Shown here piece after piece: positions 3,001-60,316 of a DNA stretch of 64,000 bases. The DNA lies in the NCBI GenBank assembly GCA_017625505.1, contig JAGAKV010000011.1:25212-89211 (forward strand), written 5' to 3'. Origin of the DNA: Clostridia bacterium. GTDB lineage: Bacteria > Bacillota > Clostridia > Christensenellales > UBA1242. A model generated the notes under the pieces. That model had not been told where the DNA came from. It ran no database searches and saw nothing but the letters and a program-made list of their open reading frames with translations. A program made the translations under genes and the position numbers. Position 1 is the first letter of the stretch. Every line of letters starts with the position of its first letter.

Positions 3001-4050
3001 ACTATGCCACGAAGAGACACTACTCTTTATGCAAAATGGAATAAAGTAAGTCTCTACTATCGCACAATCAAGTTTGTGACAAACTCAACTGACGTAATCG
3101 ACAGCATTACACAGCTTGAAGGAACCACAGTAGTTGTTCCATACCTTGACACAAAACAAGAAACAGTTGGCGACGCAACAACAACTTACAAGTTTGCAGG
3201 CTGGTATATAGATTCAACTTGTACAGAGGAATTTACTTCTTACAAGATGCCAAGTCAAAGCATAGTGCTTTACGCTAAATGGGATTTTGTAAAGACCGAA
3301 ACTACTAAAACATTTGAACTTATTCACAATGGTTCTACACTCTACTCTTACAGAATCAAAGCTGGTGACAGTATTGATCTTTCAAGCGTAACGCAGGTTG
3401 ATACAACAAGCAGCAAACCAACTCTTTTCTATACAGATGCAGCACGCACTACGCTGTATGGCGGCAACTTCATAATGCCTGAAACAGATCTTACAATCTA
3501 TATGAAAAATGCATATACGCTTACTGCTACAAGCAGATTTGGCAACACAGCAACGGCAACTTACTACTTGTATGAAGGCGAAGCTCTTACTCTTCCAACG
3601 CAAAACAGCTATGTTTCTGATGATGGAAATACAAGAAAGACCTACACATTCCTCGGCTATAGTGAAAATATCACGTCAATGCCTTGCGAAAACAAAAATG
3701 TTGTAGCAAATTGGAGCGAGGATATTAAGCATTACTATACAATCACATTTGATATGAGCTTAACGTATCGCCCATTGGGTTGCGCAGCCGGTGCAAAATT
3801 TAAAAAAGCACCTCCTTCAATCCCTTCAATCAAGGTTCTTGAAGGAACAGTGATCGATCTGACACAAAGCACATATCAAGTTGAATGTCAAATTTGGGGA
3901 ACGGCAATTTCCTTTGGAGTTTACTACACCTTCCGCTCTACAACTTGGGGAACTTCGGTTAATAGCACCGCAAGCTCAGGCGGCAACGGCTTCACATCAT
4001 ATACAGTAACAGGCAATGCCACACTTTACCCATATTGGCAAAAGGTTTAG
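1..4050 (+). CDS. Large secreted/surface repeat protein, 5'-truncated by the window edge, with C-terminal Listeria-Bacteroides (Flg_new / InlB B-repeat type) modules
   Basis: The frame is open from base 1 to TAG at 4048-4050. From about aa 930 there are repeated ~70-aa modules of the form Y.I.F..NGG...G..G....LP......F.GWY......F....MP..D..LYAKW. Confidence 0.75.
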   Translation, partial: VVTLENNTISLYYTTEKLTGVKFNDQLTASFVEFEEVTLSSEENSYIKFTSFLPTAQNVLDIMANDVISGSITTTIEEQDIEISFAYSQSENKACAYTQILGIDVNIYMTNGKVFVNVQDKFKFISDTSTFMDDIQAFLTNVGLEMNIDSQEIFTELANLLNPAVNALFIKNFVQNDNTTVVTLFNDIAFTITNTDNAITLASQVENIPFAIHIEGNGDVVIPQLVEEDYTDINVLLNLAAAAHNAGLTKLLTPAIDTLAAGNLGATFDFSYDEITVSGHISINITDLSLGINVNVRGLDVNIIILSDDVVYIEFGNVYAKFALADLPKVGEILEEYFDISLPFAAILEILNDIRTGEFNPIDALNTLEIEIDLEKFDLAYFDSVEVSDESYTLPLEGIGQINLKADETTLQSVGFEGFGIKANGYLSEYKVFDLSLLKNEYIDLALLLPTAENILDIISYNTLSGQIVIYDRELDLNIPIDYVVAKDSEVYVSFTTNIYGAHISGKYYKEKVYLEFAESVSIVVDVLNLPAAIQEVMDSAGKNIQTDLFVTIKDILDKLLSSNSGSLISTAVGLFDSVKSTFDKTSIEILIKNLVSTDNGLVLTLHDNTAITLANVSAGLTGATAIDYIDLNVSVYGSNDTIVIPTLNDSDYIPIENILELVKAFFNMTHKDDFNIQGTLHIVGSLIGIDINMDVDVNAQVKIVDGKVMFQAVIGEIPAIVGVNNDVPYKFGDTESGSDRYVYLYFDGGDLYIYRSENVDVVFGASKRHYEKCTKISADTLLADPMYYLQYMLGFTDTIMAEIEKAMDLAQNRETPIDLNNVVNDLACDGDRFDLILNLAEIANNELLDTLDLDLLLNKDGENKSYIYQLGLAVFMPLAANVFELDISSDNIRIVDYGSTVDLSRLYEYVGNYKYNYGEEWEASDGSWEKASDKQYTISFEENGGDSQADIVGVYGSPITLPTYTNSIVTDDGVAKTTATFAGWYTTANFKEGTQFTETTMPRRDTTLYAKWNKVSLYYRTIKFVTNSTDVIDSITQLEGTTVVVPYLDTKQETVGDATTTYKFAGWYIDSTCTEEFTSYKMPSQSIVLYAKWDFVKTETTKTFELIHNGSTLYSYRIKAGDSIDLSSVTQVDTTSSKPTLFYTDAARTTLYGGNFIMPETDLTIYMKNAYTLTATSRFGNTATATYYLYEGEALTLPTQNSYVSDDGNTRKTYTFLGYSENITSMPCENKNVVANWSEDIKHYYTITFDMSLTYRPLGCAAGAKFKKAPPSIPSIKVLEGTVIDLTQSTYQVECQIWGTAISFGVYYTFRSTTWGTSVNSTASSGGNGFTSYTVTGNATLYPYWQKV

Positions 4051-16765: not shown

Positions 16766-18424
16766 TTAATCCAAAGTCACAATTGTAAGAATCATTGGTC
16801 TACGCTTTGTACGCTTAAAAATAAAGTTTGACACGTTACGTCTTAATGATGAGCGGATCATTGAAGGCTCTACGCCGCGCAGGTCACTTTCTTTTAGTGA
16901 GGCAATTATGCATGCTTTAGCATCCTGCACAAAGCTTTCTTGTTCATCAGCATAAACCACACCGCGTGTGATGATAAATGGTTCTCCAGTGATTTCTCCC
17001 TTAATGTTGTTGATATTGACACAAACGACGCAAATGCCATCTTCTGAAAGTTGTTTACGTTCGCGCAGAACATTGCTGTCCATGTCGCCAATTCCAATAC
17101 CGTCAACAAGTCGTTGACCTGCTTTGACAAGTTTGCCCTCTTTAATTGAATTTGCACCCAGCTCTATCTGCATGCCAATACATGGCAGAAGGACGTTGCG
17201 TTCATCCATTCCGAGTTTTACAGCAAGCTCTTTATGAGTCTTCATGTGCCTATATTCGCCATGCACTGGGATAAAGAATTTTGGTTTTACAAGGCTGTGC
17301 ATAAGTTTAAGTTCTTCCTGACAAGCGTGTCCCGAAGTGTGAACATCGGCAAGCTCATCATAGATTACATCCGCACCCAGTTTGTAAAGTGCGTTGATTA
17401 CGTTGTATACATTCTTTTCATTGCCTGGAATTGGAGAGGCTGACAAAATCACAAGGTCGTTTTGTTTGATTTTTAAGTTTTTAAACTCACCTGATGCCAT
17501 TCTTGTAAGTGCACTCATTGGCTCGCCTTGGCTTCCAGTGGTCATGATAAGCACTTCTTTATCTGCCATTTTATCAACTTTTTCGATGTCAATAATGTTG
17601 TCACGGTTAAACTTAAGTTCTCCAAGTTTCAGCGCAACCTCGCTTACATTAATCATGCTTCTTCCAGTAAAGGCAATTTTTCTGCCATACTTTTCTGCAA
17701 TGTCCATAATCTGTTGCATTCTGTGAATATTTGATGCAAACGTTGCCACAATGATTCTTTGCTCTGGATGTCCCTTAATAAGTCCGTCAAGGGTTTCTCC
17801 CACCCTTTTTTCACTCATTGAATAGCCCTTTCTGCAAACGTTTGTGCTTTCGCAAAGAAGAAGCTGAACGCCTTTACGTCCAATTTCGCCCAATCTTGAA
17901 AGGTCGGTCATTTGACCATCGATTGGCTCGTAGTCAATTTTAAAGTCGCCCGTATGAACAATTGTTCCAACAGGTGTTGTAATTGAGAATGCCAGTGCCC
18001 CTGCGATTGAGTGGCTCACCTTTACAAATTCAATCACATAAGAGCCAAGTTTAAGCACGTTTCTTGGTTTTACCGCAACCCCCTTAAACTTAACCTTTGG
18101 ATGCTCTTTAAGTTTGTTTTCGACGAGAGCAAGCGTAAGTCTTGACCCATACACTGGAACTTGAATTTGCTCTAATAAGAATGGAACTGCACCAATGTGG
18201 TCTTCATGGCCGTGTGTGAGAAGCAGCGCTTTGATCTTTGCTTTGTTTTCAACTAAGTAACTCATATCAGGAATAACAATATCAACGCCCGGCAAATCTT
18301 CGCCTGGGAATGTAAGTCCCGCATCGATGAGAATGATTTCATCATTATACTCAAGTGCGGTCATGTTTTTTCCGATTTCTCCCACTCCTCCTAAAAATGT
18401 TATTTTTAATTTATCGTTTTTCAC
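16766..18424 (-). CDS. rnj: Ribonuclease J
   Basis: Metallo-beta-lactamase/beta-CASP protein of 552 aa, with LGGVGEIGKNM and the HGHEDHIGA motif. Confidence 0.9.
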   Translation of the reverse strand: MKNDKLKITFLGGVGEIGKNMTALEYNDEIILIDAGLTFPGEDLPGVDIVIPDMSYLVENKAKIKALLLTHGHEDHIGAVPFLLEQIQVPVYGSRLTLALVENKLKEHPKVKFKGVAVKPRNVLKLGSYVIEFVKVSHSIAGALAFSITTPVGTIVHTGDFKIDYEPIDGQMTDLSRLGEIGRKGVQLLLCESTNVCRKGYSMSEKRVGETLDGLIKGHPEQRIIVATFASNIHRMQQIMDIAEKYGRKIAFTGRSMINVSEVALKLGELKFNRDNIIDIEKVDKMADKEVLIMTTGSQGEPMSALTRMASGEFKNLKIKQNDLVILSASPIPGNEKNVYNVINALYKLGADVIYDELADVHTSGHACQEELKLMHSLVKPKFFIPVHGEYRHMKTHKELAVKLGMDERNVLLPCIGMQIELGANSIKEGKLVKAGQRLVDGIGIGDMDSNVLRERKQLSEDGICVVCVNINNIKGEITGEPFIITRGVVYADEQESFVQDAKACIIASLKESDLRGVEPSMIRSSLRRNVSNFIFKRTKRRPMILTIVTLD

Positions 18425-20723: not shown

Positions 20724-21036
20724 AGCGTTTTAAGGGTTTGGGGAAATCGCAATCCCCAGCGCTTTTTTAATTCATCCTCTTTCTCCCACGCAGGGTTTCT
20801 TCGCACGAGAGTCGCGACAAACTTTATTTCGTCAATCATTTAAATCCTCATCCGCTTTTTAGCGTTTTAAGGGTCTGGGGAAATCGCAATCCCCAGCGCT
20901 TTTTTTAATTCATCCTCTTTCTCCCACGCAGGGTTTCTTCGCACGAGAGTCGCGACAAACTTTATTTCGTCAATCATTTAAATCCTTATCCGCTTTTTAG
21001 CGTTTTAAGGGTTTGGGGAAATCGCAATCCCCAGCG
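20724..21036. repeat. Tandem repeat, 137/138-bp unit x 2.3 copies
   Basis: Copies lie at 20724-20860, 20861-20998 and 20999-21036 (partial). Copies 1 and 2 differ by two substitutions and one T indel. Each starts with the hairpin TGGGGA-N8-TCCCCA followed by a T6-7 run. Confidence 0.9.
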
Positions 21037-21072
21037 TCTTTTGTAACTTTTCTACGCTAGAAAAGTTGATAA

Positions 21073-50650: not shown

Positions 50651-53083
50651 TTATACGTAGTAATCTTTGTAGCTTTCGGCTTTTGCTTTTGGAGCCTTTG
50701 TGCCTTTAGCTGCACCGCGTCCACCACGTCCGCCACCTTTACGCTTCTTGATCACAACAATTGTCACAACAACTCCAGTTGCAACCACAACCACGCAAGC
50801 AAGGGTAATCCATAGCCATAAAAGATCTGATGCGTTTGCATTTTTATCTTCCTTTGAAGTAATTTTGATTTTGATTTCTTCCTTTCCGGCAGCATAATCA
50901 AACTTACTCATATCAATATTAAATGAATAGATTGTATTTCCTTCTTCATCCAAAATTGAATCACTTTGGAATGTCGCAGGAAAAACAAATGTAAGCGGAT
51001 CTTGCACTTTGGTTTTTATGTCTTTCTTGAGAGCCTCAACATCAAGCATATATCCTTTTTTGACAGTAATTCTTAATGGAACAATGCCTTTTTTAGCAAT
51101 TTGAATTGCTTCTTCTGTGTTATATTCATTTCCGCCTAGGCTTATAAGCAAAACTTGCTTGTCGTCAAAGGTAAAATTTACATTCGCCGGATCGGCTGTA
51201 AACACAGCAATCAGTTTTACCTCTCTATTGAATGTAACTTGCTGCACTTTCTCAATAGCGTCATATTCTGAATTAAATGCATCTTTCGCATTTCTATTAA
51301 AAACAACCTTCAGTTCGCTGGCAGCAATATCCTCTACTGTTTGCTTCTCATCTTCCCATCCGTCACCGTCTGCGTCATCAGTTTCGTTGGTTGCTTTATA
51401 ATAAACATCCCAATGATCAAAAGCATAAATTCCCTTAGACTCTGCAACAATCTTTTTCGACTTTGCATCATATCTAAATTCAAGTGAAACGCTTTCATAG
51501 ATAGAGCCTACAGCCGCTTCGCTCATTCTAACGCCACCCTCATCGGTATTCAGAACGGCCGCCAGCCCCTCATAAGGAGTTGTTTGCTCTACGCTAAACG
51601 AATATCTCCCTGCTGTGCTAGCGTTTGCTTCAAGAGTAAACGACCACCCAAGCAGTTCGTTTGCTGTAACTTCTGTAGTAACTACATTTTCAGTATTTTG
51701 ATAGATAGTAAGTCTGTCAAACCACCCTTGACAATCGTCTAACAATGTCACCTTAATGGTTACAGGATCACCATACTTAAAGATCTTCCTGTGTGCCTCA
51801 CCTTCTGCCGCTCCTTCGAATGAAGCATCTTTGATCGTTTTGACCGAACTTAGAGCAATTTCAAAATTGCCTTCTGGAATAATAAACTCAAAGTATTCAA
51901 ACTGCTGAAGAACAACTTTCGCACTTTTATAGTCCCAGATAGTATTAAAATCAAATGCCTCAAGTGCGCCGTCAAAAAGCTCTACACTCGTCAAAAGATC
52001 TTTTGTTATGGTTGTATATTTTTCATCAATTGCAGTTAAATTTTGAAGATTAGCCTTAATCGCGATGCTGTCATCTCCTACAGGGTTGATAGCGTTTTGA
52101 AGATAATAGTCATATCGAATGTTGTTTGCAGTATATGCAGTTGGGCATCCACCAATGATGGCACCTGCTTTCAGTGAAAAATTTACATAATCGTGTTCAC
52201 CTGCAACAGTTCCACCAAAAATTGTGTTTTTAACTTGCGTGTTTGTCCCATCTACAACACCTACAATTCCACCAAAATATTGATACACGTCCTCAATAAT
52301 GTCAAGATTTTTCCCACCATAGGTTATTTGCCCAAAATTAAGTGAATTTACAACTACTCCCTGACTAAGCATCCCTACAAGTCCGCCAACTTGAATGCTT
52401 GCCATTTCATCTAAAACAAAGTTCGTAGAATAGTAAGCTATGCAGTCTTCCACGTTCTTTTTTTCTGTGCTTTTTCCATTAAGTCTGCCTGCCAGCATAC
52501 CGAAAGTAACTTTAGAGCCAAGATGAATGTCATCTCGGAGGGCATCTCTTGTTTTTTCAACGCCATCTTCTTCATCAGTATAAGTTTCGGTATATATTTC
52601 TTGCACTGATGTAAGGTCTATTTCACAGTTTTTAATAGTTGTATCATCTCCAAGTCCAACAAGCCCGCCAATATACGCCCCTGTTGAAGACATGTTTCTC
52701 AAATCATATGTAAGCGATCCTTCCAATTTTAAATCTTGAATCGTCGCTCCCTTTGCCCTTGGAATAAGTCCATAACATGATTGCACACTTCCATCTTCTG
52801 GCGCGCCCAAAGTTAAATTTGTAATTTTGTATCCATTCCCATCGAAGAACCCTTGAAACTCGTTTGTGATTTGTGAAATGTCGATAACGACATTCTCAAG
52901 GTCATTTTGAAGCGTAATCTTAGCATAATTTCCATTTAAAGCGTTCTGAAGATCCTGCGCTGTTTCGACCTTTTTTTCTTCGTTTGGCGCTGCTTCTTCT
53001 GCATAAACAAAATTATTTGCAAGCGCAAAACTGCCTGCAAATATCATTACTATTGATAAAATTCCCATCCACAATTTTTTCAT
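50651..53083 (-). CDS. Surface protein with GLUG-type repeats, C-terminal TM helix and a short RGG/K-rich tail
   Basis: Signal peptide ...FALANNFVYA. Recurrent GG(L/I)VG motifs (GGLVGLGDD, GGLVGMLSQG, GGIVGVVDG). TM helix LWLWITLACVVVVATGVVVTIVVI, then KKRKGGGRGGRGAAKG... Confidence 0.7.
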   Translation of the reverse strand: MKKLWMGILSIVMIFAGSFALANNFVYAEEAAPNEEKKVETAQDLQNALNGNYAKITLQNDLENVVIDISQITNEFQGFFDGNGYKITNLTLGAPEDGSVQSCYGLIPRAKGATIQDLKLEGSLTYDLRNMSSTGAYIGGLVGLGDDTTIKNCEIDLTSVQEIYTETYTDEEDGVEKTRDALRDDIHLGSKVTFGMLAGRLNGKSTEKKNVEDCIAYYSTNFVLDEMASIQVGGLVGMLSQGVVVNSLNFGQITYGGKNLDIIEDVYQYFGGIVGVVDGTNTQVKNTIFGGTVAGEHDYVNFSLKAGAIIGGCPTAYTANNIRYDYYLQNAINPVGDDSIAIKANLQNLTAIDEKYTTITKDLLTSVELFDGALEAFDFNTIWDYKSAKVVLQQFEYFEFIIPEGNFEIALSSVKTIKDASFEGAAEGEAHRKIFKYGDPVTIKVTLLDDCQGWFDRLTIYQNTENVVTTEVTANELLGWSFTLEANASTAGRYSFSVEQTTPYEGLAAVLNTDEGGVRMSEAAVGSIYESVSLEFRYDAKSKKIVAESKGIYAFDHWDVYYKATNETDDADGDGWEDEKQTVEDIAASELKVVFNRNAKDAFNSEYDAIEKVQQVTFNREVKLIAVFTADPANVNFTFDDKQVLLISLGGNEYNTEEAIQIAKKGIVPLRITVKKGYMLDVEALKKDIKTKVQDPLTFVFPATFQSDSILDEEGNTIYSFNIDMSKFDYAAGKEEIKIKITSKEDKNANASDLLWLWITLACVVVVATGVVVTIVVIKKRKGGGRGGRGAAKGTKAPKAKAESYKDYYV

Positions 53084-53301
53084 ATTTCCTCCAGCACAAA
53101 CTAGTGCTTTTATTTTTTGTTTTGCATTTTAAAACAAATTAATTAATATTTTTATTGTCGAATAGCATATTTAGTATTTATATATTTAATTTATCATATA
53201 AATTTATTTTTTCCAAACAAATTACAAAATATTTTAAAATAATAAAAATATTACAAAAATAAATATGAATATTTTTTTATATAAAATTTTAGTGGTAATA
53301 A

Positions 53302-54723
53302 TCACAAAGCATTAAATCGATTTTTTCTAATTAGTTTTTCTTTATCCTTTTGAATTTGTGATTTTTCTTGCCTTTTTTGCACCGGCTTATTGATATTCAT
53401 AAGATAATAGCGCATTTCGTCTAAGCAGTGATCATCCTTTTTGATCGGAATATCATCATCTCCCCACCAATATCCCTTTATCTCCGAAATCAAGTTCACG
53501 CAGTTTTTGAATATAAATAAATGAGCTTTTCCTTCGCCATCTTTGAGATAGCTTTTAACCTTGCTTATTCCGCTAAACATATCCTTGTTTACTTTAGGGT
53601 TTACCAAAATGTCGTTATCATAAAAAAGATCAACAACGCTTTTGCTGCTTGCAAGCGTTCGCTGAGTTGCCGCACTATCAATCAGCGCGCATAATTTTCC
53701 ATTTTGATAATGCCACCCCAGTCGTTTTGAAATCTCTTTAATGCGGTTTGCGTGATATGTTACATCCTTCCCCTTGTCAAAGTGCTCGGCTATTACATAC
53801 ACGTTTCCATCAAAATCCTGTGCATACCAGTGTGCAGAAAGAGGGTTGTTGAGGCCGGGGTCAATGGAAATGGTATCATACCACTCTTTTGGCACGTCAA
53901 AAGGCTCAATCACATGCACGCTTTCTTGAAACTCGCTATACACAAGCCCGCCGCACTGCATAAACTTGCCATAGCGCCTACTTTCGAGTTCCTCTTCTGA
54001 CATACTTTTTGTCATAGCCTCAATTTCGTGTTTATCAAGATATGGATTATCTGCCCACTCCATTTCTTCATGCCAGACATTATCATCATTATTTTGATTT
54101 AAATAAATTTCGTTATACACCCATGTCAGTCCTTTTAGCGGGGTCATCGTACCAAACACTTCTCCCTGCCTATCAAGGACTCTCATGCGACATTCTTGGT
54201 AAATATCATATGGCGGTTCTTCATCAAACCAAACAAAGTCAAGTGATGAGCCCTGAAATTTTTCTCTTCCCTGATCACAGCTTTTAAAGCCAATTTTGGA
54301 AAGCGAGCCAAACACATTTTTGACCATAATAAAGTCAATTACGCCCCCTTCTGCGCTATCCGAACGGCCGCTGGACATGACAATATGGTCAATCCAATCC
54401 TTTCTTAAGTAGTGCAAAATTTTGCTTTGCGCGACATCACGCTGCACCTGTTTTGACAGACTTACAACCCATGCCGAAATTGGCTTATTTTTCTTAAAAG
54501 GATGAATTCCTCTTGCAAGCCAAACCGTTTCTACCGCGCCGCACTCGGTCTTACCTGAGCGATTTCCTCCAAATACCCAACGATTCTTCTTGCAGCACTT
54601 ATGAAACTCCATTTGTTTTTTGTGGATAATTTCTCCGCTGTTATAGCGTGACAAATTGTCTTCTCTTTGCCTTTTTTCGATTTCTTGCGTCACAAGCTGC
54701 AACTTATATTTTATCTCTTCCAT
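53302..54723 (-). CDS. Phage terminase large subunit (intact, isolated)
   Basis: Walker A GGNRSGKT, Walker B LDFVWFDE, and nuclease-half motifs IDPG and DDHCLDEMRY. The start is taken at MEEIKY (ATG 54723) after GGAGAG. Confidence 0.85.
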   Translation of the reverse strand: MEEIKYKLQLVTQEIEKRQREDNLSRYNSGEIIHKKQMEFHKCCKKNRWVFGGNRSGKTECGAVETVWLARGIHPFKKNKPISAWVVSLSKQVQRDVAQSKILHYLRKDWIDHIVMSSGRSDSAEGGVIDFIMVKNVFGSLSKIGFKSCDQGREKFQGSSLDFVWFDEEPPYDIYQECRMRVLDRQGEVFGTMTPLKGLTWVYNEIYLNQNNDDNVWHEEMEWADNPYLDKHEIEAMTKSMSEEELESRRYGKFMQCGGLVYSEFQESVHVIEPFDVPKEWYDTISIDPGLNNPLSAHWYAQDFDGNVYVIAEHFDKGKDVTYHANRIKEISKRLGWHYQNGKLCALIDSAATQRTLASSKSVVDLFYDNDILVNPKVNKDMFSGISKVKSYLKDGEGKAHLFIFKNCVNLISEIKGYWWGDDDIPIKKDDHCLDEMRYYLMNINKPVQKRQEKSQIQKDKEKLIRKNRFNAL

Positions 54724-54812
54724 TTCTCTCTCCGCTAAAAAGTTTACATTTGCCCATAATATCGACAAATATTTGTTTTGACCCGTTCCCCCTTTCGATA
54801 TACACTTGACTT

Positions 54813-55586
54813 ATGAAAAAATTAGTAATTTCTCTATCGCTTATTATTTTCTGTCTTGCCATTCTTCCAACCAGTGCACAATACTCTTACGCTGAAAAAA
54901 TCTACTGGGCCAAGGTTGAACAAAATGGCACTTATTTTTATGCTCTTGCTGACGAGACAAGCCAGCTGTTTATTTTGCCTGAATCTTATTTTGTAAAACT
55001 TACCGGCGAAAAGGATAATTTCTTCTCCGCGCAGTATCGAGACATACAGGGATATGTGAAAAAAGATGAAGTGAGCCCAATGGATGGAACGCCGTCAAAT
55101 CCATACTATATTGAATCTTTCAGAGCATTTTTGCCTGCAGGTACGGGGCTTTATGCCATCAGTCAAATGATGGATGAGTATAAAATCATTGACATCCCAT
55201 ACCTATATGAAAATCTGACCTATTACGGCTCGATTGCTGGGCAAACTGCCATCCCAGAAAAAAGTAATATCTGGCATTACTGCAAATATGGTGAGGATTA
55301 TGGCTATGTATATTCCATTTTTTGTGACAAGCTGGAATCCCCACCACTAAACCATGAAAGTTTTTCAAAAATTGACAGCGTTTCATTTGAAGAGCCTCCA
55401 ATAAAAGCACTCTCGCAAACAGCAATGGCTTTTATTATTATCGGCGTTTCTCTTCCATGCCTGATTGTTTTATATCTTCTCATCAGACCTAATATGATGA
55501 AAGTAAGCCTGCCAAAAGAAAAATCCAAATATAAAGCAGCAAAGCGAAGGGATTACTTTGAATTTGACCAATCAGATTTAAATTAA
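54813..55586 (+). CDS. Secreted protein with SH3b-like N-domain and C-terminal TM anchor
   Basis: Signal peptide ...PTSAQYSYA. YWAKV...GYVKKDEV resembles a bacterial SH3. TM helix AFIIIGVSLPCLIVLYLLI near the C-terminus. Confidence 0.5.
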   Translation: MKKLVISLSLIIFCLAILPTSAQYSYAEKIYWAKVEQNGTYFYALADETSQLFILPESYFVKLTGEKDNFFSAQYRDIQGYVKKDEVSPMDGTPSNPYYIESFRAFLPAGTGLYAISQMMDEYKIIDIPYLYENLTYYGSIAGQTAIPEKSNIWHYCKYGEDYGYVYSIFCDKLESPPLNHESFSKIDSVSFEEPPIKALSQTAMAFIIIGVSLPCLIVLYLLIRPNMMKVSLPKEKSKYKAAKRRDYFEFDQSDLN

Positions 55587-56080
55587 ATGGCAATTTGCTC
55601 CTCCGCCATTTCTTGCTCTTTATAGCTTTGGTAAATCTCCATAATCCACTTCTCTCCCGCCAAATACCTTTGAAGCTTTTTCTCGTCATATCCAAATTTA
55701 CTCATAAAGCCACAAAATTTTTCTTCCGCAGCAAGAAGATGTCTAAAATAAGTGCGTATGTTTAAATTATGTCGCTCGGCTATTGCTTGAGATGAATCTC
55801 CGTCCATATATTTCTCGATTAAAATTTGAGCAGAATGTCTATCGCACTCAAGGAGCGCCTTGTCGGCAAGCACCCTAACATTAATCAGTCTCTTTTTCCT
55901 CTCGGTCAGCTCCAATATGCGATCAGCAACTGCCATTACAGAATTTTGCGACTGATTTTGCCCAACAAAATAAAATGAATTGAAGGCGTTTTGTTTGACA
56001 AGTTTGTCAATGGCCTCGCTTACCCTATCTAAAAATTTATATACCGATAAAATTGTTTTTCCCCATGTATTATTCTTCAT
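55583..56080 (-). CDS. ArpU-/sigma-70-region-4-like phage-type transcriptional regulator
   Basis: 165 aa. The C-terminal HTH ...DSSQAIAERHNLNIRTYFRHLLAAEEKF resembles sigma r4 and ArpU late regulators. It has its own promoter and RBS. Confidence 0.5.
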   Translation of the reverse strand: MKNNTWGKTILSVYKFLDRVSEAIDKLVKQNAFNSFYFVGQNQSQNSVMAVADRILELTERKKRLINVRVLADKALLECDRHSAQILIEKYMDGDSSQAIAERHNLNIRTYFRHLLAAEEKFCGFMSKFGYDEKKLQRYLAGEKWIMEIYQSYKEQEMAEEQIAI

Positions 56081-56111: not shown

Positions 56112-56141
56112 ATTATAAGTAGTGAAAATTGAAAAAGTCAA
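56112..56141 (-). promoter_or_regulatory. Promoter of the ArpU-like gene
   Basis: On the minus strand: TTGACT (56141-56136), an 18-nt spacer, and TATAAT (56117-56112). GGAG lies upstream of ATG 56080. Confidence 0.6.
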
Positions 56142-56168
56142 CGTTCACTGACATAGTATTACATATTT

Positions 56169-56186
56169 TTGTAAAATATTTTACAA
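56169..56186. promoter_or_regulatory. Perfect 18-bp palindrome TTGTAAAATATTTTACAA (operator candidate), copy 1
   Basis: It lies within the 24-bp string ATATTTTTGTAAAATATTTTACAA, which recurs identically at 58232-58255. It is 27 nt upstream of the -35 box. Confidence 0.7.
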
Positions 56187-56196
56187 AAATGAGTGT

Positions 56197-56236
56197 TTTT
56201 TTCGAATTTTGTCAAATTTTGTCAATTTTTGTCGAA
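56197..56236 (+). repeat. Four phased 10-bp direct repeats (TTTTTTCGAA TTTTGTCAAA TTTTGTCAAT TTTTGTCGAA)
   Basis: The repeats have an exact 10-bp period. The last unit contains TGTCGAA, the canonical Spo0A-box heptamer, and the two before it are one-mismatch variants. Confidence 0.75.
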
Positions 56237-56294: not shown

Positions 56295-56323
56295 TTGCAC
56301 TCTAAGAAGTTTTGTGCTAAGAT
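56295..56323 (+). promoter_or_regulatory. Possible tRNA-Leu promoter
   Basis: TTGCAC (56295-300), a 17-nt spacer ending in TGC, and TAAGAT (56318-23). Confidence 0.4.
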
Positions 56324-56381: not shown

Positions 56382-56467
56382 GCTGGTGTGGCGGAATGGC
56401 AGACGCGACGGACTCAAAATCCGTTGGTGGCAACATCATGTGGGTTCGACTCCCACCACCAGCACCA
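56382..56467 (+). tRNA. tRNA-Leu (anticodon CAA), type II with long variable arm, CCA encoded
   Basis: Acceptor stem GCTGGTG/CACCAGC, anticodon stem ACGGA/TCCGT with loop CTCAAAA, T-arm GTGGG-TTCGACT-CCCAC, and a 3' ACCA. Confidence 0.9.
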
Positions 56468-56492: not shown

Positions 56493-56571
56493 TGGTGGGA
56501 GTCGAACGTGTTCGATCGGGTTCCCTGAAAATTGTAAAATTTTTAGGGTAAGGCTTCCACCACCAGCACCA
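56493..56571 (+). repeat. Inverted (56493-56507) and direct (56555-56571) copies of the tRNA-Leu 3' end enclosing two hairpins
   Basis: 56493-56507 is the exact reverse complement of tRNA bases 56444-56458. 56555-56571 matches tRNA bases 56451-56467 at 16 of 17 positions. Confidence 0.85.
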
Positions 56572-56867: not shown

Positions 56868-57056
56868 CTAATCATTAAATTCCATAAGTATAAAAACTTC
56901 GTTTTTACATTTTACACATTTCATATCATGAATAAAATGTTTTTTCCCTCGCACTGAGGGCTTTTTTATTAATATTCTACATGTGCCACTATCAGACGAT
57001 GTATTGCACTCGCCAAGACATCTTCCACAGTGAGGACAATATAGCTTGATATTCAA
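56868..57056 (-). CDS. Small CxxC...CxxC zinc-ribbon protein co-transcribed with lexA
   Basis: 62 aa with CPHC near the N-terminus and CVKC near the C-terminus. It starts 11 nt after the lexA stop. It faintly resembles Mu Com-type zinc fingers. Confidence 0.5.
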   Translation of the reverse strand: MNIKLYCPHCGRCLGECNTSSDSGTCRILIKKPSVRGKKHFIHDMKCVKCKNEVFILMEFND

Positions 57057-57067
57057 TTTTTGCCTCC

Positions 57068-57664
57068 TTAAAATTTATGGATACAATGCTCGACCACGCC
57101 AAGAATGCTTACGTGCCGCGTAATAATGTCTCCATAATTTTTGTTTTCAGGGTGTAACACTACATGATCTGACCGCTTGTAAAAAGTCTTAACGGTTGCG
57201 CTGTCATCAAGTAAGGCGACTACTATCTGACCATTTTGCGCATAGTTGGTTTTGCGGACAACAAGCAAGTCTCCACTTTGAATCCCCACTTCCATCATAC
57301 TATCACCTTCAGCGTGAAGCAGGAATATCTCGCCGCGACCAAATATATCGCTTGGCAGTGCATACACTCCTTCAATGTTTTCTTGAGCCAGTATAGGTTG
57401 ACCGCATGTGACCACACCAACCACAGGGGCAATTGTGACTGATGAGGCATCAAAAGTTGGAAAACAGAATATCTTTCCACTCTTGCTTTTTTGCACTTCT
57501 CCCCGCTCTGCAAGAATATCTATATATCTGCTTACGACAGAGAGGCTTGAAAGCTGAAACTGTTTGGCTATATTACGATAAGAGGGGCTTTGCCCATTCT
57601 TAATCTGATAAGTTTTAATATAGTCCAAAATTTCAGCCAGCAATTTTTCATTTACAACCTTCAT
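57068..57664 (-). CDS. lexA: LexA-family repressor (winged HTH + S24 peptidase)
   Basis: The start is taken at MKVVNEKLL (ATG 57664) after GAGGT. HTH SYRNIAKQFQLSSLSVVSRYI, catalytic Ser in GDSM and Lys in VKTF. Confidence 0.85.
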   Translation of the reverse strand: MKVVNEKLLAEILDYIKTYQIKNGQSPSYRNIAKQFQLSSLSVVSRYIDILAERGEVQKSKSGKIFCFPTFDASSVTIAPVVGVVTCGQPILAQENIEGVYALPSDIFGRGEIFLLHAEGDSMMEVGIQSGDLLVVRKTNYAQNGQIVVALLDDSATVKTFYKRSDHVVLHPENKNYGDIITRHVSILGVVEHCIHKF

Positions 57665-57682
57665 ACCTACCTCGTTTTTAAA

Positions 57683-57697
57683 AGAACATCGCGTTCT
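57683..57697. promoter_or_regulatory. LexA-box-like inverted repeat AGAAC-N5-GTTCT
   Basis: AGAACATCGCGTTCT lies between the predicted lexA -10 box (57709-57714) and the RBS. The spacer is 5 nt rather than the 4 nt of the canonical Firmicute box. Confidence 0.45.
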
Positions 57698-57737: not shown

Positions 57738-57757
57738 GCGTTTGTGTCAATTTTTTC

Positions 57758-57789
57758 AAAAAAAAAATGCCATCTTTTTTCAGACGGCA
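57758..57789 (-). terminator. Rho-independent terminator after the Spo0A_C gene
   Basis: On the minus strand: TGCCGTCT-GAAAAA-AGATGGCA (8 bp including one G-U), followed by a T10 run. Confidence 0.7.
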
Positions 57790-58172
57790 CATTTTTTGCT
57801 TTTTTGTAAAATCTTATTGCTTTCCATAAATGCTTTTTCCGCAAGCAGACAAAGCATTTCACGTGGAGATGGTTTACAAATAGAAAAACGGATATGCATT
57901 CCTCTTTCAAAATCGGCAATTCCATTTCGCTTATAACTCACTTCAATTGCATGACGCATGGCACGATCAACAATGTCAAGCTTTACCCCATTATCCGATG
58001 CGATCTCTTGATATAACCCAACCCCAACTTTAAACTTCTTATCATTGTCATTTATAATCTTTTTTGCCCCCTCCTTAAAGAAAGTATACCCTTTCAAATT
58101 GGGTGATATCTTCAGCATAATCAAAAACAGCGACAACTTTTCTTCTATAAGAAGAGCAAAACATTCTTGCAT
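57780..58172 (-). CDS. Stand-alone Spo0A C-terminal (DNA-binding) domain protein, no receiver domain
   Basis: The start is taken at MQECF (ATG 58172) after GGAGG. ISPNLKGYTFFKEG, VDRAMRHAIEVSY.RNG and KPSPREMLCLLAEK align with the Spo0A effector motifs IKGYLYLREA, VERAIRHAIEVAWSRG and KPTNSEFIAMVADK. Confidence 0.8.
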   Translation of the reverse strand: MQECFALLIEEKLSLFLIMLKISPNLKGYTFFKEGAKKIINDNDKKFKVGVGLYQEIASDNGVKLDIVDRAMRHAIEVSYKRNGIADFERGMHIRFSICKPSPREMLCLLAEKAFMESNKILQKSKKCAV

Positions 58173-58193: not shown

Positions 58194-58221
58194 ATTATAC
58201 TGATGTGGACGCAAAAGTCAA
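58194..58221 (-). promoter_or_regulatory. Promoter of the Spo0A_C gene
   Basis: On the minus strand: TTGACT (58221-58216), a 16-nt spacer, and TATAAT (58199-58194). Confidence 0.6.
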
Positions 58222-58237
58222 TACTTTTTAAATATTT

Positions 58238-58255
58238 TTGTAAAATATTTTACAA
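58238..58255. promoter_or_regulatory. Perfect 18-bp palindrome TTGTAAAATATTTTACAA, copy 2
   Basis: Identical to 56169-56186, including 6 upstream bases. It lies 16 nt upstream of the -35 box of the Spo0A_C gene. Confidence 0.7.
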
Positions 58256-60216: not shown

Positions 60217-60287
60217 TAAATTTTAAATGATTTTGCAAATTTTCACCATGTTGTTTTAATGCGAAAAAAAAACGTTTGTCAGAAGTT

Positions 60288-60316
60288 TTGTAAAAGGAAA
60301 GGCTGACCATTTTACA
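60288..60316. promoter_or_regulatory. Split version of the palindrome: TTGTAAAA-N13-ATTTTACA
   Basis: The half-sites at 60288-60295 and 60309-60316 equal the two arms of the 18-bp palindrome. They end 9 nt upstream of the -35 box of the 60373 gene. Confidence 0.5.

Follow-up and report, generated by a model that had tools for sequence, protein, structure and literature searches.

An array of 0A-box-like repeats beside a phage-type activator gene in a Clostridia chromosome: a candidate operator for an orphan Spo0A DNA-binding domain

Spo0A is the master switch of endospore formation. In the 64-kb stretch of Clostridia DNA analyzed here ("the window"), four 10-bp units that resemble Spo0A binding sites (0A boxes) lie side by side at positions 56197-56236 (TTTTTTCGAA TTTTGTCAAA TTTTGTCAAT TTTTGTCGAA). 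The array occupies a 300-bp divergent spacer between a gene for a 165-aa protein (minus strand) and tRNA-Leu(CAA) (plus strand), and a nearby gene encodes a stand-alone Spo0A DNA-binding domain, which we will call the orphan. The locus raises the question of whether the repeat is a Spo0A-type site and, if so, which protein reads it and what is controlled from it. Judged from its sequence, the array conforms to a Spo0A-type multi-box site in motif, geometry, conservation and phasing to the promoter, and is part of a larger composite operator, a helical lattice that also contains an element designated TTTTGTAAAA. That the locally encoded, receiver-less orphan occupies this lattice, with TTTTGTAAAA as its best site, and controls the gene for the 165-aa protein is a reading to which we assign a probability of about one half.

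The original prediction described a direct repeat of four 10-bp units, and the repeat is present with exactly the sequence given. Tandem Repeats Finder (TRF) returned a period of 10, 3.7 copies, 88% matches and a score of 53. The self-match of the array at lag 10 (25/30) is the top value of the entire window; it was equalled in none of 200 dinucleotide-preserving shuffles of the whole window (mean maximum 18.7, standard deviation 0.9) and in none of 5000 shuffles of the local 300-bp spacer. The last unit contains the perfect 0A box TGTCGAA that had been predicted, and is the only unit that does. The preceding two units had been described as single-mismatch variants, which is correct for TGTCAAA but not for TGTCAAT, with two mismatches; the remaining heptamer, TTTCGAA, has one. 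Spo0A contacts G2, C4 and G5 of TGTCGAA, and single changes cost about 10-fold in affinity (PMC3485338). All array heptamers have the same orientation and are separated by 3-bp spacers, which is the geometry of the footprinted Spo0A sites of phages phi29 and Nf, where a consensus box and an imperfect box with up to three mismatches lie 3 bp apart (PMC2731898). In phi29, four consecutive 0A boxes are found per origin (PMC2731898). In addition, A2-3/T4-5 tracts recur at 10-bp intervals along the array, and such phased tracts probably add a helpful intrinsic bend.

When the locus was sampled from 38 species-level genomes and 11 metagenome contigs, the 0A box proved to be the part of the array that is shared across species. 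In an unbiased 7-mer count over the interval 60-230 bp before the start codon, which covered 33 non-redundant orthologous promoters, TGTCGAA/TTCGACA was found in 21 copies distributed over 19 promoters, while 0.75 copies were expected from background (p 2e-23). It is the top 7-mer among those not made of A and T only, and ranks first among 630 7-mers of equal composition, the runner-up having 7 copies. Dinucleotide shuffles of the same regions yielded 0.68 ± 0.83 copies, with a maximum of 5 in 1000 shuffles, and the density of the box is 33-fold higher than in AT-rich control windows of the same loci. The promoter region has a mean AT content of 79% in the relatives. Heptamers with at most one mismatch from the 0A box are present in 29 of 31 loci. 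These counts support the view that a 0A-type heptamer is under selection at the promoter of the 165-aa gene.

The repeat as such has a narrower distribution. A strong tandem repeat (at least 23/30) is found in the clade of the window and in few other lineages only, and many relatives have the boxes while lacking the regular A-tract repeat. Whether homologous loci retain the repeats was a question posed by the original prediction: TGTCGAA boxes (in 19 of the 33 promoters) and the lattice are kept, but the exact 4 x 10 bp repeat and the TGTCAAA and TGTCAAT units are not conserved as such. The lattice is therefore the conserved feature, and the exact repeat is a local, lineage-specific elaboration.

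The positions of the boxes, counted as slots from the 5' edge of the -35 hexamer of the 165-aa gene, are regular. Perfect boxes are centered at 51 (six loci), 53, 61, 69, 70, 73, 74, 82, 83, 92, 93 and 113 bp, and are phased to that hexamer with a period of 10.25-10.5 bp (R = 0.77, p about 0.002, unique positions only). Relative to the tRNA-Leu promoter on the other strand, the phasing of the same boxes is not significant (R 0.43, p 0.18), and regulation of that promoter was rejected for this reason. Heptamers with at most one mismatch cluster at 51-54, 60-64, 69-76, 81-84, 92-95 and 102-103 (R 0.69). In the window, slots 32 and 41 are taken by a palindrome, slot 52 is empty, and slots 62, 72, 82 and 92 correspond to the four repeat units. 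The predicted location of the array, 56-95 bp upstream of the -35 box, agrees with the 5' edge of the TTGACT hexamer found in a promoter scan, and the claim that all units lie on one face of the helix fits the spacing of the slots they fill (about 10.3 bp) and the phase of these slots relative to the -35 box in front of the 165-aa gene. Heptamers of the form TGT(C/A)(G/A)AA all fall on a single lattice with steps of about 10.3 bp; because the 0A boxes and the TTTTGTAAAA positions occupy the same steps, one common lattice can be drawn for both.

The TTTTGTAAAA pair, absent from the original prediction, is the most conserved and dominant element of the promoter. Words of TTTTGTAAAA type lead the 7-mer ranking (TTTTGTA, 67 copies vs 2.8 expected, in 30-31 of the 33 loci). 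TTTTGTAAAA is fixed at slot 41/42 in 26 of 31 loci, and a second copy is found either at 30/31, where it is inverted in 17 loci and direct in 3, or at 20/21. In the window, the two copies form a perfect palindrome whose 18-bp core occurs twice in the 64 kb, the second time just upstream of the promoter of the orphan gene. A Rex or CRP/FNR-type site was considered for the palindrome and rejected, as many relatives have direct repeats or a 21-bp separation, unfit for a symmetric dimer.

Of 16 orphan promoters inspected, 14 are likewise preceded by elements of TTTTGTAAAA type. TTGTAAA/TTTACAA is present in all 15 orphan promoters scored, one per species, with a density of 1.73 per 140 bp vs 0.145 per 100 bp in AT-rich control windows. 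The 15 promoters include those of four distant orphans (36-52% identity) with different neighbors: CLIPPER proteins, NUDIX plus LexA, and an extracytoplasmic function (ECF)-type sigma factor. Orphan promoters contain mostly TTTTGTAAAA and TGTCGAA only rarely; in a lineage with 46% identity, slots 12 and 31 are of TTTTGTAAAA type, and GGTCGAA, TTCGTCA and a perfect TGTCGAA are found at 61, 73 and 92. As far as the promoter sequences indicate, the orphan gene itself is the common denominator of TTTTGTAAAA, which points to autoregulation of the orphan through this element.

Two further occurrences deserve mention. In Candidatus Heteroclostridium caecigallinarum (locus L049, about 3870-3890), which has the most distant homologue of the 165-aa protein (28% identity), a perfect CGAACATATGTTCG LexA box replaces the TTTTGTAAAA elements, an arrangement that suggests an exchange of SOS-type control for the Spo0A-type lattice. 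In the window, another TTTTACAAAA lies at about 60286-60295, some 100 bp upstream of a gene for a 615-aa surface protein with DUF285/leucine-rich repeats, and no recognisable lattice was found around it.

The protein encoded at 57780-58172 had been predicted to consist of the Spo0A effector domain alone, and domain searches led to the same conclusion. Spo0A_C is its sole Pfam domain (E 2.7e-13, residues 17-113), no receiver domain was detected in a Pfam scan of the 130 residues, and the score against the NCBIfam Spo0A equivalog TIGR02875 is 39 bits, far below the cut-off of 200. The protein aligns to the Spo0A-DNA complex 1LQ1 (E 4e-9) and to 1FC3. Divergence of the recognition helix, raised by the original prediction as a possible objection, was not found in its core: the family sequence V-D-R-A-M/L-R-H-A-I-E/D-V-S can be compared with V-E-R-A-I-R-H-A-I-E-V-A in B. 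subtilis, and R214, R217 and H218 are invariant across the orphan family (numbering taken from the 1LQ1 alignment). Zhao et al. reportedly described in 2002 the residues E213, R214 and R217 as base contacts. The orphan family comprises about 20 clusters at the 50% identity level (E < 1e-10), nearly all of 120-156 aa, and the nearest canonical full-length Spo0A proteins have 30-34% identity to the orphan. Both the orphan and the 165-aa protein have relatives in uncultured gut Clostridia only.

The genes for Spo0A_C and LexA lie beside the cluster of the 165-aa gene in about half of the lineages. In others (loci L048, L050, L051 and L052) the Spo0A_C/LexA pair is found away from the terminase cluster, on another contig, and a paralogue of the 165-aa protein (30-39% identity) follows the operon formed by LexA and a 62-aa open reading frame (ORF). 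In three loci (L064-L066, 5001-6186), the gene directly after a 46%-identical orphan encodes 174 aa in which Pfam recognizes sigma-70 region-4 domains, in the same GDPD/RsmD/NMT1 neighborhood. From these arrangements, orphan and sigma-like factor appear to form a conserved pair. Five proteins of 350-430 aa contain two to three Spo0A_C-like stretches in tandem.

The 165-aa protein had been labeled ArpU-like, a label without support from curated families: Pfam yielded no match at E 0.01, and NCBIfam none of relevance at E 0.1. Instead, it matches PHROG 248, annotated as "transcriptional activator" (E 4.7e-6). Its confident AlphaFold model (predicted local distance difference test score, pLDDT, 85.5) is similar in fold to sigma region 4 and to ECF sigma factors; the E-values are weak, but the target TM-scores of the region-4 domain are 0.73-0.83. 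On the basis of the model, the product resembles a sigma-region-4-like activator of phage type. The gene is always linked to a gene for a protein similar to the large subunit of phage terminases, and the divergent tRNA-Leu lies upstream almost always. Identity across relatives is 66-88% for the terminase-like protein vs 28-77% for the 165-aa protein. No other phage structural genes were found near the terminase-like gene, which from its sequence and setting looks like a domesticated phage gene. Further downstream, the form AATATTTTGyAAwTTATTTGGAAAAA...TATATGATAAATTA of a strongly conserved promoter-like block (also in loci L015-L047) precedes a gene for a protein of about 800 aa (810 aa in the window) in every lineage, and this block may be a target of the 165-aa factor. 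The window also has a 0A box at 53156, ahead of the 810-aa gene, which relatives do not retain. The coordinates of these features are collected in Table 1.

Table 1. Features of the array, its promoters and the surrounding genes. Positions are those of the window; slots are counted from the 5' edge of the -35 hexamer of the gene concerned.
Feature	Position	Strand	Remarks
Array heptamers	56200-06 TTTCGAA; 56210-16 TGTCAAA; 56220-26 TGTCAAT; 56230-36 TGTCGAA		TTT between each
Perfect 0A box	56230..56236	+	Reads TTCGACA toward the 165-aa gene; part of the array conserved across species
Perfect 26-bp palindrome ATTTTTGTAAAAT/ATTTTACAAAAAT, inverted TTTTGTAAAA pair	56165..56190	.	Between array and promoter; slots 32, 41; identical in close relatives
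Second TTTTGTAAAA inverted pair	58234..58255	.	Slots 21, 30 upstream of the orphan -35
165-aa gene promoter, sigma-A-type	56112..56141	-	TTGACT 56141..56136, N18, TATAAT 56117..56112; 11/12 consensus matches
TGTCAGT	56147..56153	-	TGGCAGT in most relatives; conserved, 5-8 nt upstream of the -35 of the 165-aa gene
165-aa gene	55583..56080	-	Sigma-region-4-like, phage-type transcriptional activator (predicted); PHROG 248
tRNA-Leu promoter	56295..56323	+	TTGCAC-N17-TAAGAT; conserved in relatives; 59 bp from array
tRNA-Leu(CAA)	56382..56467	+	Divergent neighbor in nearly all lineages
62-aa ORF, two CxxC pairs	56868-57056	-	Directly downstream of lexA in all relatives
LexA	57068..57670	-	NCBIfam equivalog, 147 bits; encoded between orphan and array
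LexA box GAAC-N5-GTTC at lexA	57684-57696		
Stand-alone Spo0A_C protein, 130 aa	57780..58172	-	~2 kb from array
Orphan gene promoter, near-consensus	58194..58221	-	TTGACT-N16-TATAAT
Lone terminase-large-subunit-like gene	53302..54768	-	Fixed chromosomal context; 66-88% identity, >35 species; in the conserved cluster headed by the 165-aa gene
Conserved promoter-like block AATATTTTGTAATTTGTTTGGAAAAAATAAATTTATATGATAAATTA	53186..53233	-	Upstream of the 810-aa surface-protein gene
810-aa surface-protein gene	50651-53083		

The locus is a stable chromosomal cluster. Leftward of the array follow a 257-aa membrane protein, the lone terminase-like gene, the 810-aa surface protein, and then NMT1 and RsmD; the remaining genes of the window are ordinary chromosomal ones (MreB, RNase J, GreA, GroEL, Ffh, TrmD, LepA and others). 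A prophage was rejected because the orphan, LexA, the 62-aa ORF, tRNA-Leu, the 165-aa, 257-aa, terminase-like and ~800-aa genes, NMT1 and RsmD are syntenic across species amid housekeeping genes, and scans of viral contigs with the orphan and the 165-aa protein produced almost no matches. Integrase arm sites or iterons were discarded because the conserved neighborhood contains no integrase or initiator gene, the cumulative GC skew is monotonic across the window, and the att-like scars are located beyond the tRNA, on its 3' side. A LexA operator at the array is excluded by the distribution of GAAC-N4/5-GTTC, found only at 17956 and 57684 in the window, and an RNA element by the facts that Rfam matches are to tRNA only and that the single-strand fold is not significant (z -1.6).

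Other observations concern the neighboring genes. An inverted copy (56493-56507) and a direct partial copy (56546-56571) of the tRNA-Leu 3' end directly follow the tRNA, and in four related loci variable insertions, some bordered by duplicated tRNA segments, are found between the lexA operon and the 165-aa gene; the region downstream of tRNA-Leu looks like an integration hot spot with scars. The LexA box of the lineage is AAAAGAAC-N5-GTTCTTTT, with a 5-bp spacer in the lexA promoters of most species (loci L009-L050), vs GAAC-N4-GTTC in Firmicutes. Just upstream of the lexA -35 (about 57738-57755), a motif T[GT]G[ATG]CA[CT]AAAYRC, present at the same place in relatives, is similar to the TGGCAGT/TGTCAGT element of the 165-aa promoter. 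The 62-aa ORF is followed by a long hairpin terminator, which is conserved. Elsewhere in the window, a 138-bp tandem repeat (20724-21042; 2.3 copies, 97% identical, TRF score 608) adjoins a SPOUT methyltransferase gene.

How might such an operator work? We propose that a Spo0A-family DNA-binding domain loads onto the lattice, the likeliest candidate being the 130-aa orphan, for which phosphorylation would not be needed; the isolated DNA-binding domain of Spo0A binds legitimate targets without phosphorylation (PMC3485338). The orphan would nucleate at the strongest sites, those of TTTTGTAAAA type, and spread over imperfect neighbors in the manner of Spo0A on phi29 sites. Occupancy of the lattice would then govern how the activator gene is transcribed and, by way of its product, how the linked genes for the terminase-like and surface proteins are. 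Both core promoters are already near-consensus; for this reason, and by analogy with phi29, repression is slightly favored over activation. At promoter A2b of that phage, a box located between divergent promoters, 26 bp upstream of the -35, represses by keeping the carboxy-terminal domain of the RNA polymerase alpha subunit (alpha-CTD) from the UP element (PMC2731898), and occlusion of upstream alpha-CTD contacts might operate here likewise.

Several observations weigh against this proposal. The best-supported site of the orphan, TTTTGTAAAA, has A at both contacted bases C4 and G5, and the same protein might therefore not select the CG-containing TGTCGAA. The recognition helix has E213 fixed as D in the clade of the window, and more distant orphans keep E. 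In the 1LQ1 alignment, the orphan lacks the sigma-A-activating segment, having KRNGIADFER--GMHIRF instead, with a 2-residue gap; we take this segment to be SRGNIDSISSLFGYTV in B. subtilis, which follows the recognition helix and presumably contacts, and activates via, sigma-A. TGTCAAA and TGTCAAT are not enriched across the 33 orthologous promoters, and about half of the lineages that have 0A boxes lack an orphan within 4 kb. The preference for TGTCGAA resembles that of canonical Spo0A, for which a change of G5 or G2 costs about 10-fold in affinity (PMC3485338). Finally, ATTTTGTAA of TTTTGTAAAA recurs in the promoter block of the 810-aa gene, and the 165-aa protein is accordingly another candidate for the TTTTGTAAAA binder.

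Some of these points would be accommodated if the CG-containing boxes were read by canonical, phosphorylated, full-length Spo0A, with the orphan reading TTTTGTAAAA only or acting as a competitor. The 165-aa gene would then be a member of the Spo0A regulon, switched at stationary phase or at the entry into sporulation. The enriched 7-mer is identical to the Bacillus/Clostridioides consensus, the scarcity of TGTCGAA at orphan promoters suggests two specificities, the 0A boxes are kept where no orphan is adjacent, and in phi29 the host Spo0A controls phage-type regulatory regions via such arrays (PMC2731898). On the other hand, no full-length Spo0A could be tied to the lineage, and its closest representatives are distant from the orphan, with the 30-34% identity given above. 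The annotation of the 64-kb window contains no sporulation gene, and gpr and spoIIP are absent beside lepA, although this is weak evidence regarding a full-length Spo0A. Canonical Spo0A was neither found nor excluded in this organism. We regard this reading as the main alternative, though a less likely one than our proposal.

The recurrence of ATTTTGTAA brings in another possibility, namely that the whole lattice is bound by a different factor, either the 165-aa protein in an autoregulatory loop or another regulator, and that the likeness of the distal units to 0A boxes is coincidental. The 165-aa protein has a helix-turn-helix of sigma-4 type, and TGGCAGT is a further conserved element of its promoter. 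Distant orphans with other neighbors, however, still bear TTTTGTAAAA at their own promoters, TGTCGAA is the best 7-mer of its composition, and the 7+3 geometry is that of Spo0A sites in particular. An explanation of this kind seems quite improbable. Still less probable is that the repeat is nothing but bent, AT-rich upstream DNA that stimulates the 165-aa or tRNA-Leu promoter without a dedicated protein: phased AnTn tracts reportedly bend DNA (Hagerman in 1986; Koo, Wu and Crothers in the same year), and the tract spacing, the AT content of the relatives and the nearby tRNA promoter would suit it, but selection acts on a CG-containing heptamer beyond the A/T tracts, phasing is to the promoter of the 165-aa gene and not to that of the tRNA, and many relatives lack the regular A-tract repeat.

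The locus supplies candidate cis-sites for an orphan Spo0A: TTTTGTAAAA in front of the orphan gene, and a phased lattice that includes classical 0A boxes in front of a neighboring regulator gene. Dozens of uncultured gut species share these sites, so that two short DNA fragments and one small protein would suffice to test directly what orphan Spo0A domains recognize and do. The strongly conserved lone terminase-like gene under the proposed control may represent a domesticated phage function. A more ambitious interpretation, which we consider unlikely, is that the orphan is the core of a phosphorylation-independent switch conserved across a lineage of uncultured gut Clostridia. Such an orphan would have evolved a site of its own, TTTTGTAAAA, in which the CG of the 0A box has become AA, and would be autoregulated through it. 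Together with 0A-type boxes on one helical lattice, it would control a sigma-4-like factor that drives the domesticated terminase-like gene along with a large surface protein, possibly a phage or gene-transfer-like remnant, all wired next to lexA.

Arrays of 0A boxes are a known kind of site. What is new here is a widely conserved chromosomal orphan Spo0A_C with candidate sites, the TTTTGTAAAA variant, the single lattice and the target module. Among known systems, the array is most readily compared with the Spo0A-binding regions of phi29 and Nf, at promoters A2c/A2b/A3 and at the phi29 origins (PMC2731898), where consensus and imperfect boxes also follow one another in the same orientation with a 10-bp period, up to a number of four. 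There too, divergent promoters border the array, a -35 box is only a few helical turns away on the downstream side, and the regulatory module is of phage type. In phi29 and Nf, however, the binder is the phosphorylated full-length Spo0A of the host and was footprinted, whereas the array described here is known from its sequence. Unlike its phage counterparts, the array of the window is chromosomal, conserved in the lineage, joined to the better-conserved TTTTGTAAAA, and adjacent to the gene for a receiver-less paralogue.

The sites upstream of abrB, spo0A, sigH and spoIIG in Bacillus and Clostridioides (PMC3485338 and general knowledge) share with the array the 7-bp consensus, the presence of multiple perfect or near-perfect boxes and a location 50-100 bp upstream of starts. 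At those sites, the DNA-binding domain alone suffices for binding (PMC3485338). Their targets, however, are sporulation and transition-state genes of proven spore-formers, and the target proposed here is a sigma-4-like activator linked to a terminase-like gene.

A third parallel is provided by gut phages, in which truncated spo0A genes that encode the effector domain only have been found and targets were not described (PMC10294663). Like them, the orphan is a stand-alone Spo0A_C without receiver, predicted to be independent of the phosphorelay. The gut-phage copies are, however, phage-borne and have no known targets, while the orphan of the window is chromosomal, is paired with lexA in many species, and has candidate cis-sites that include its own promoter.

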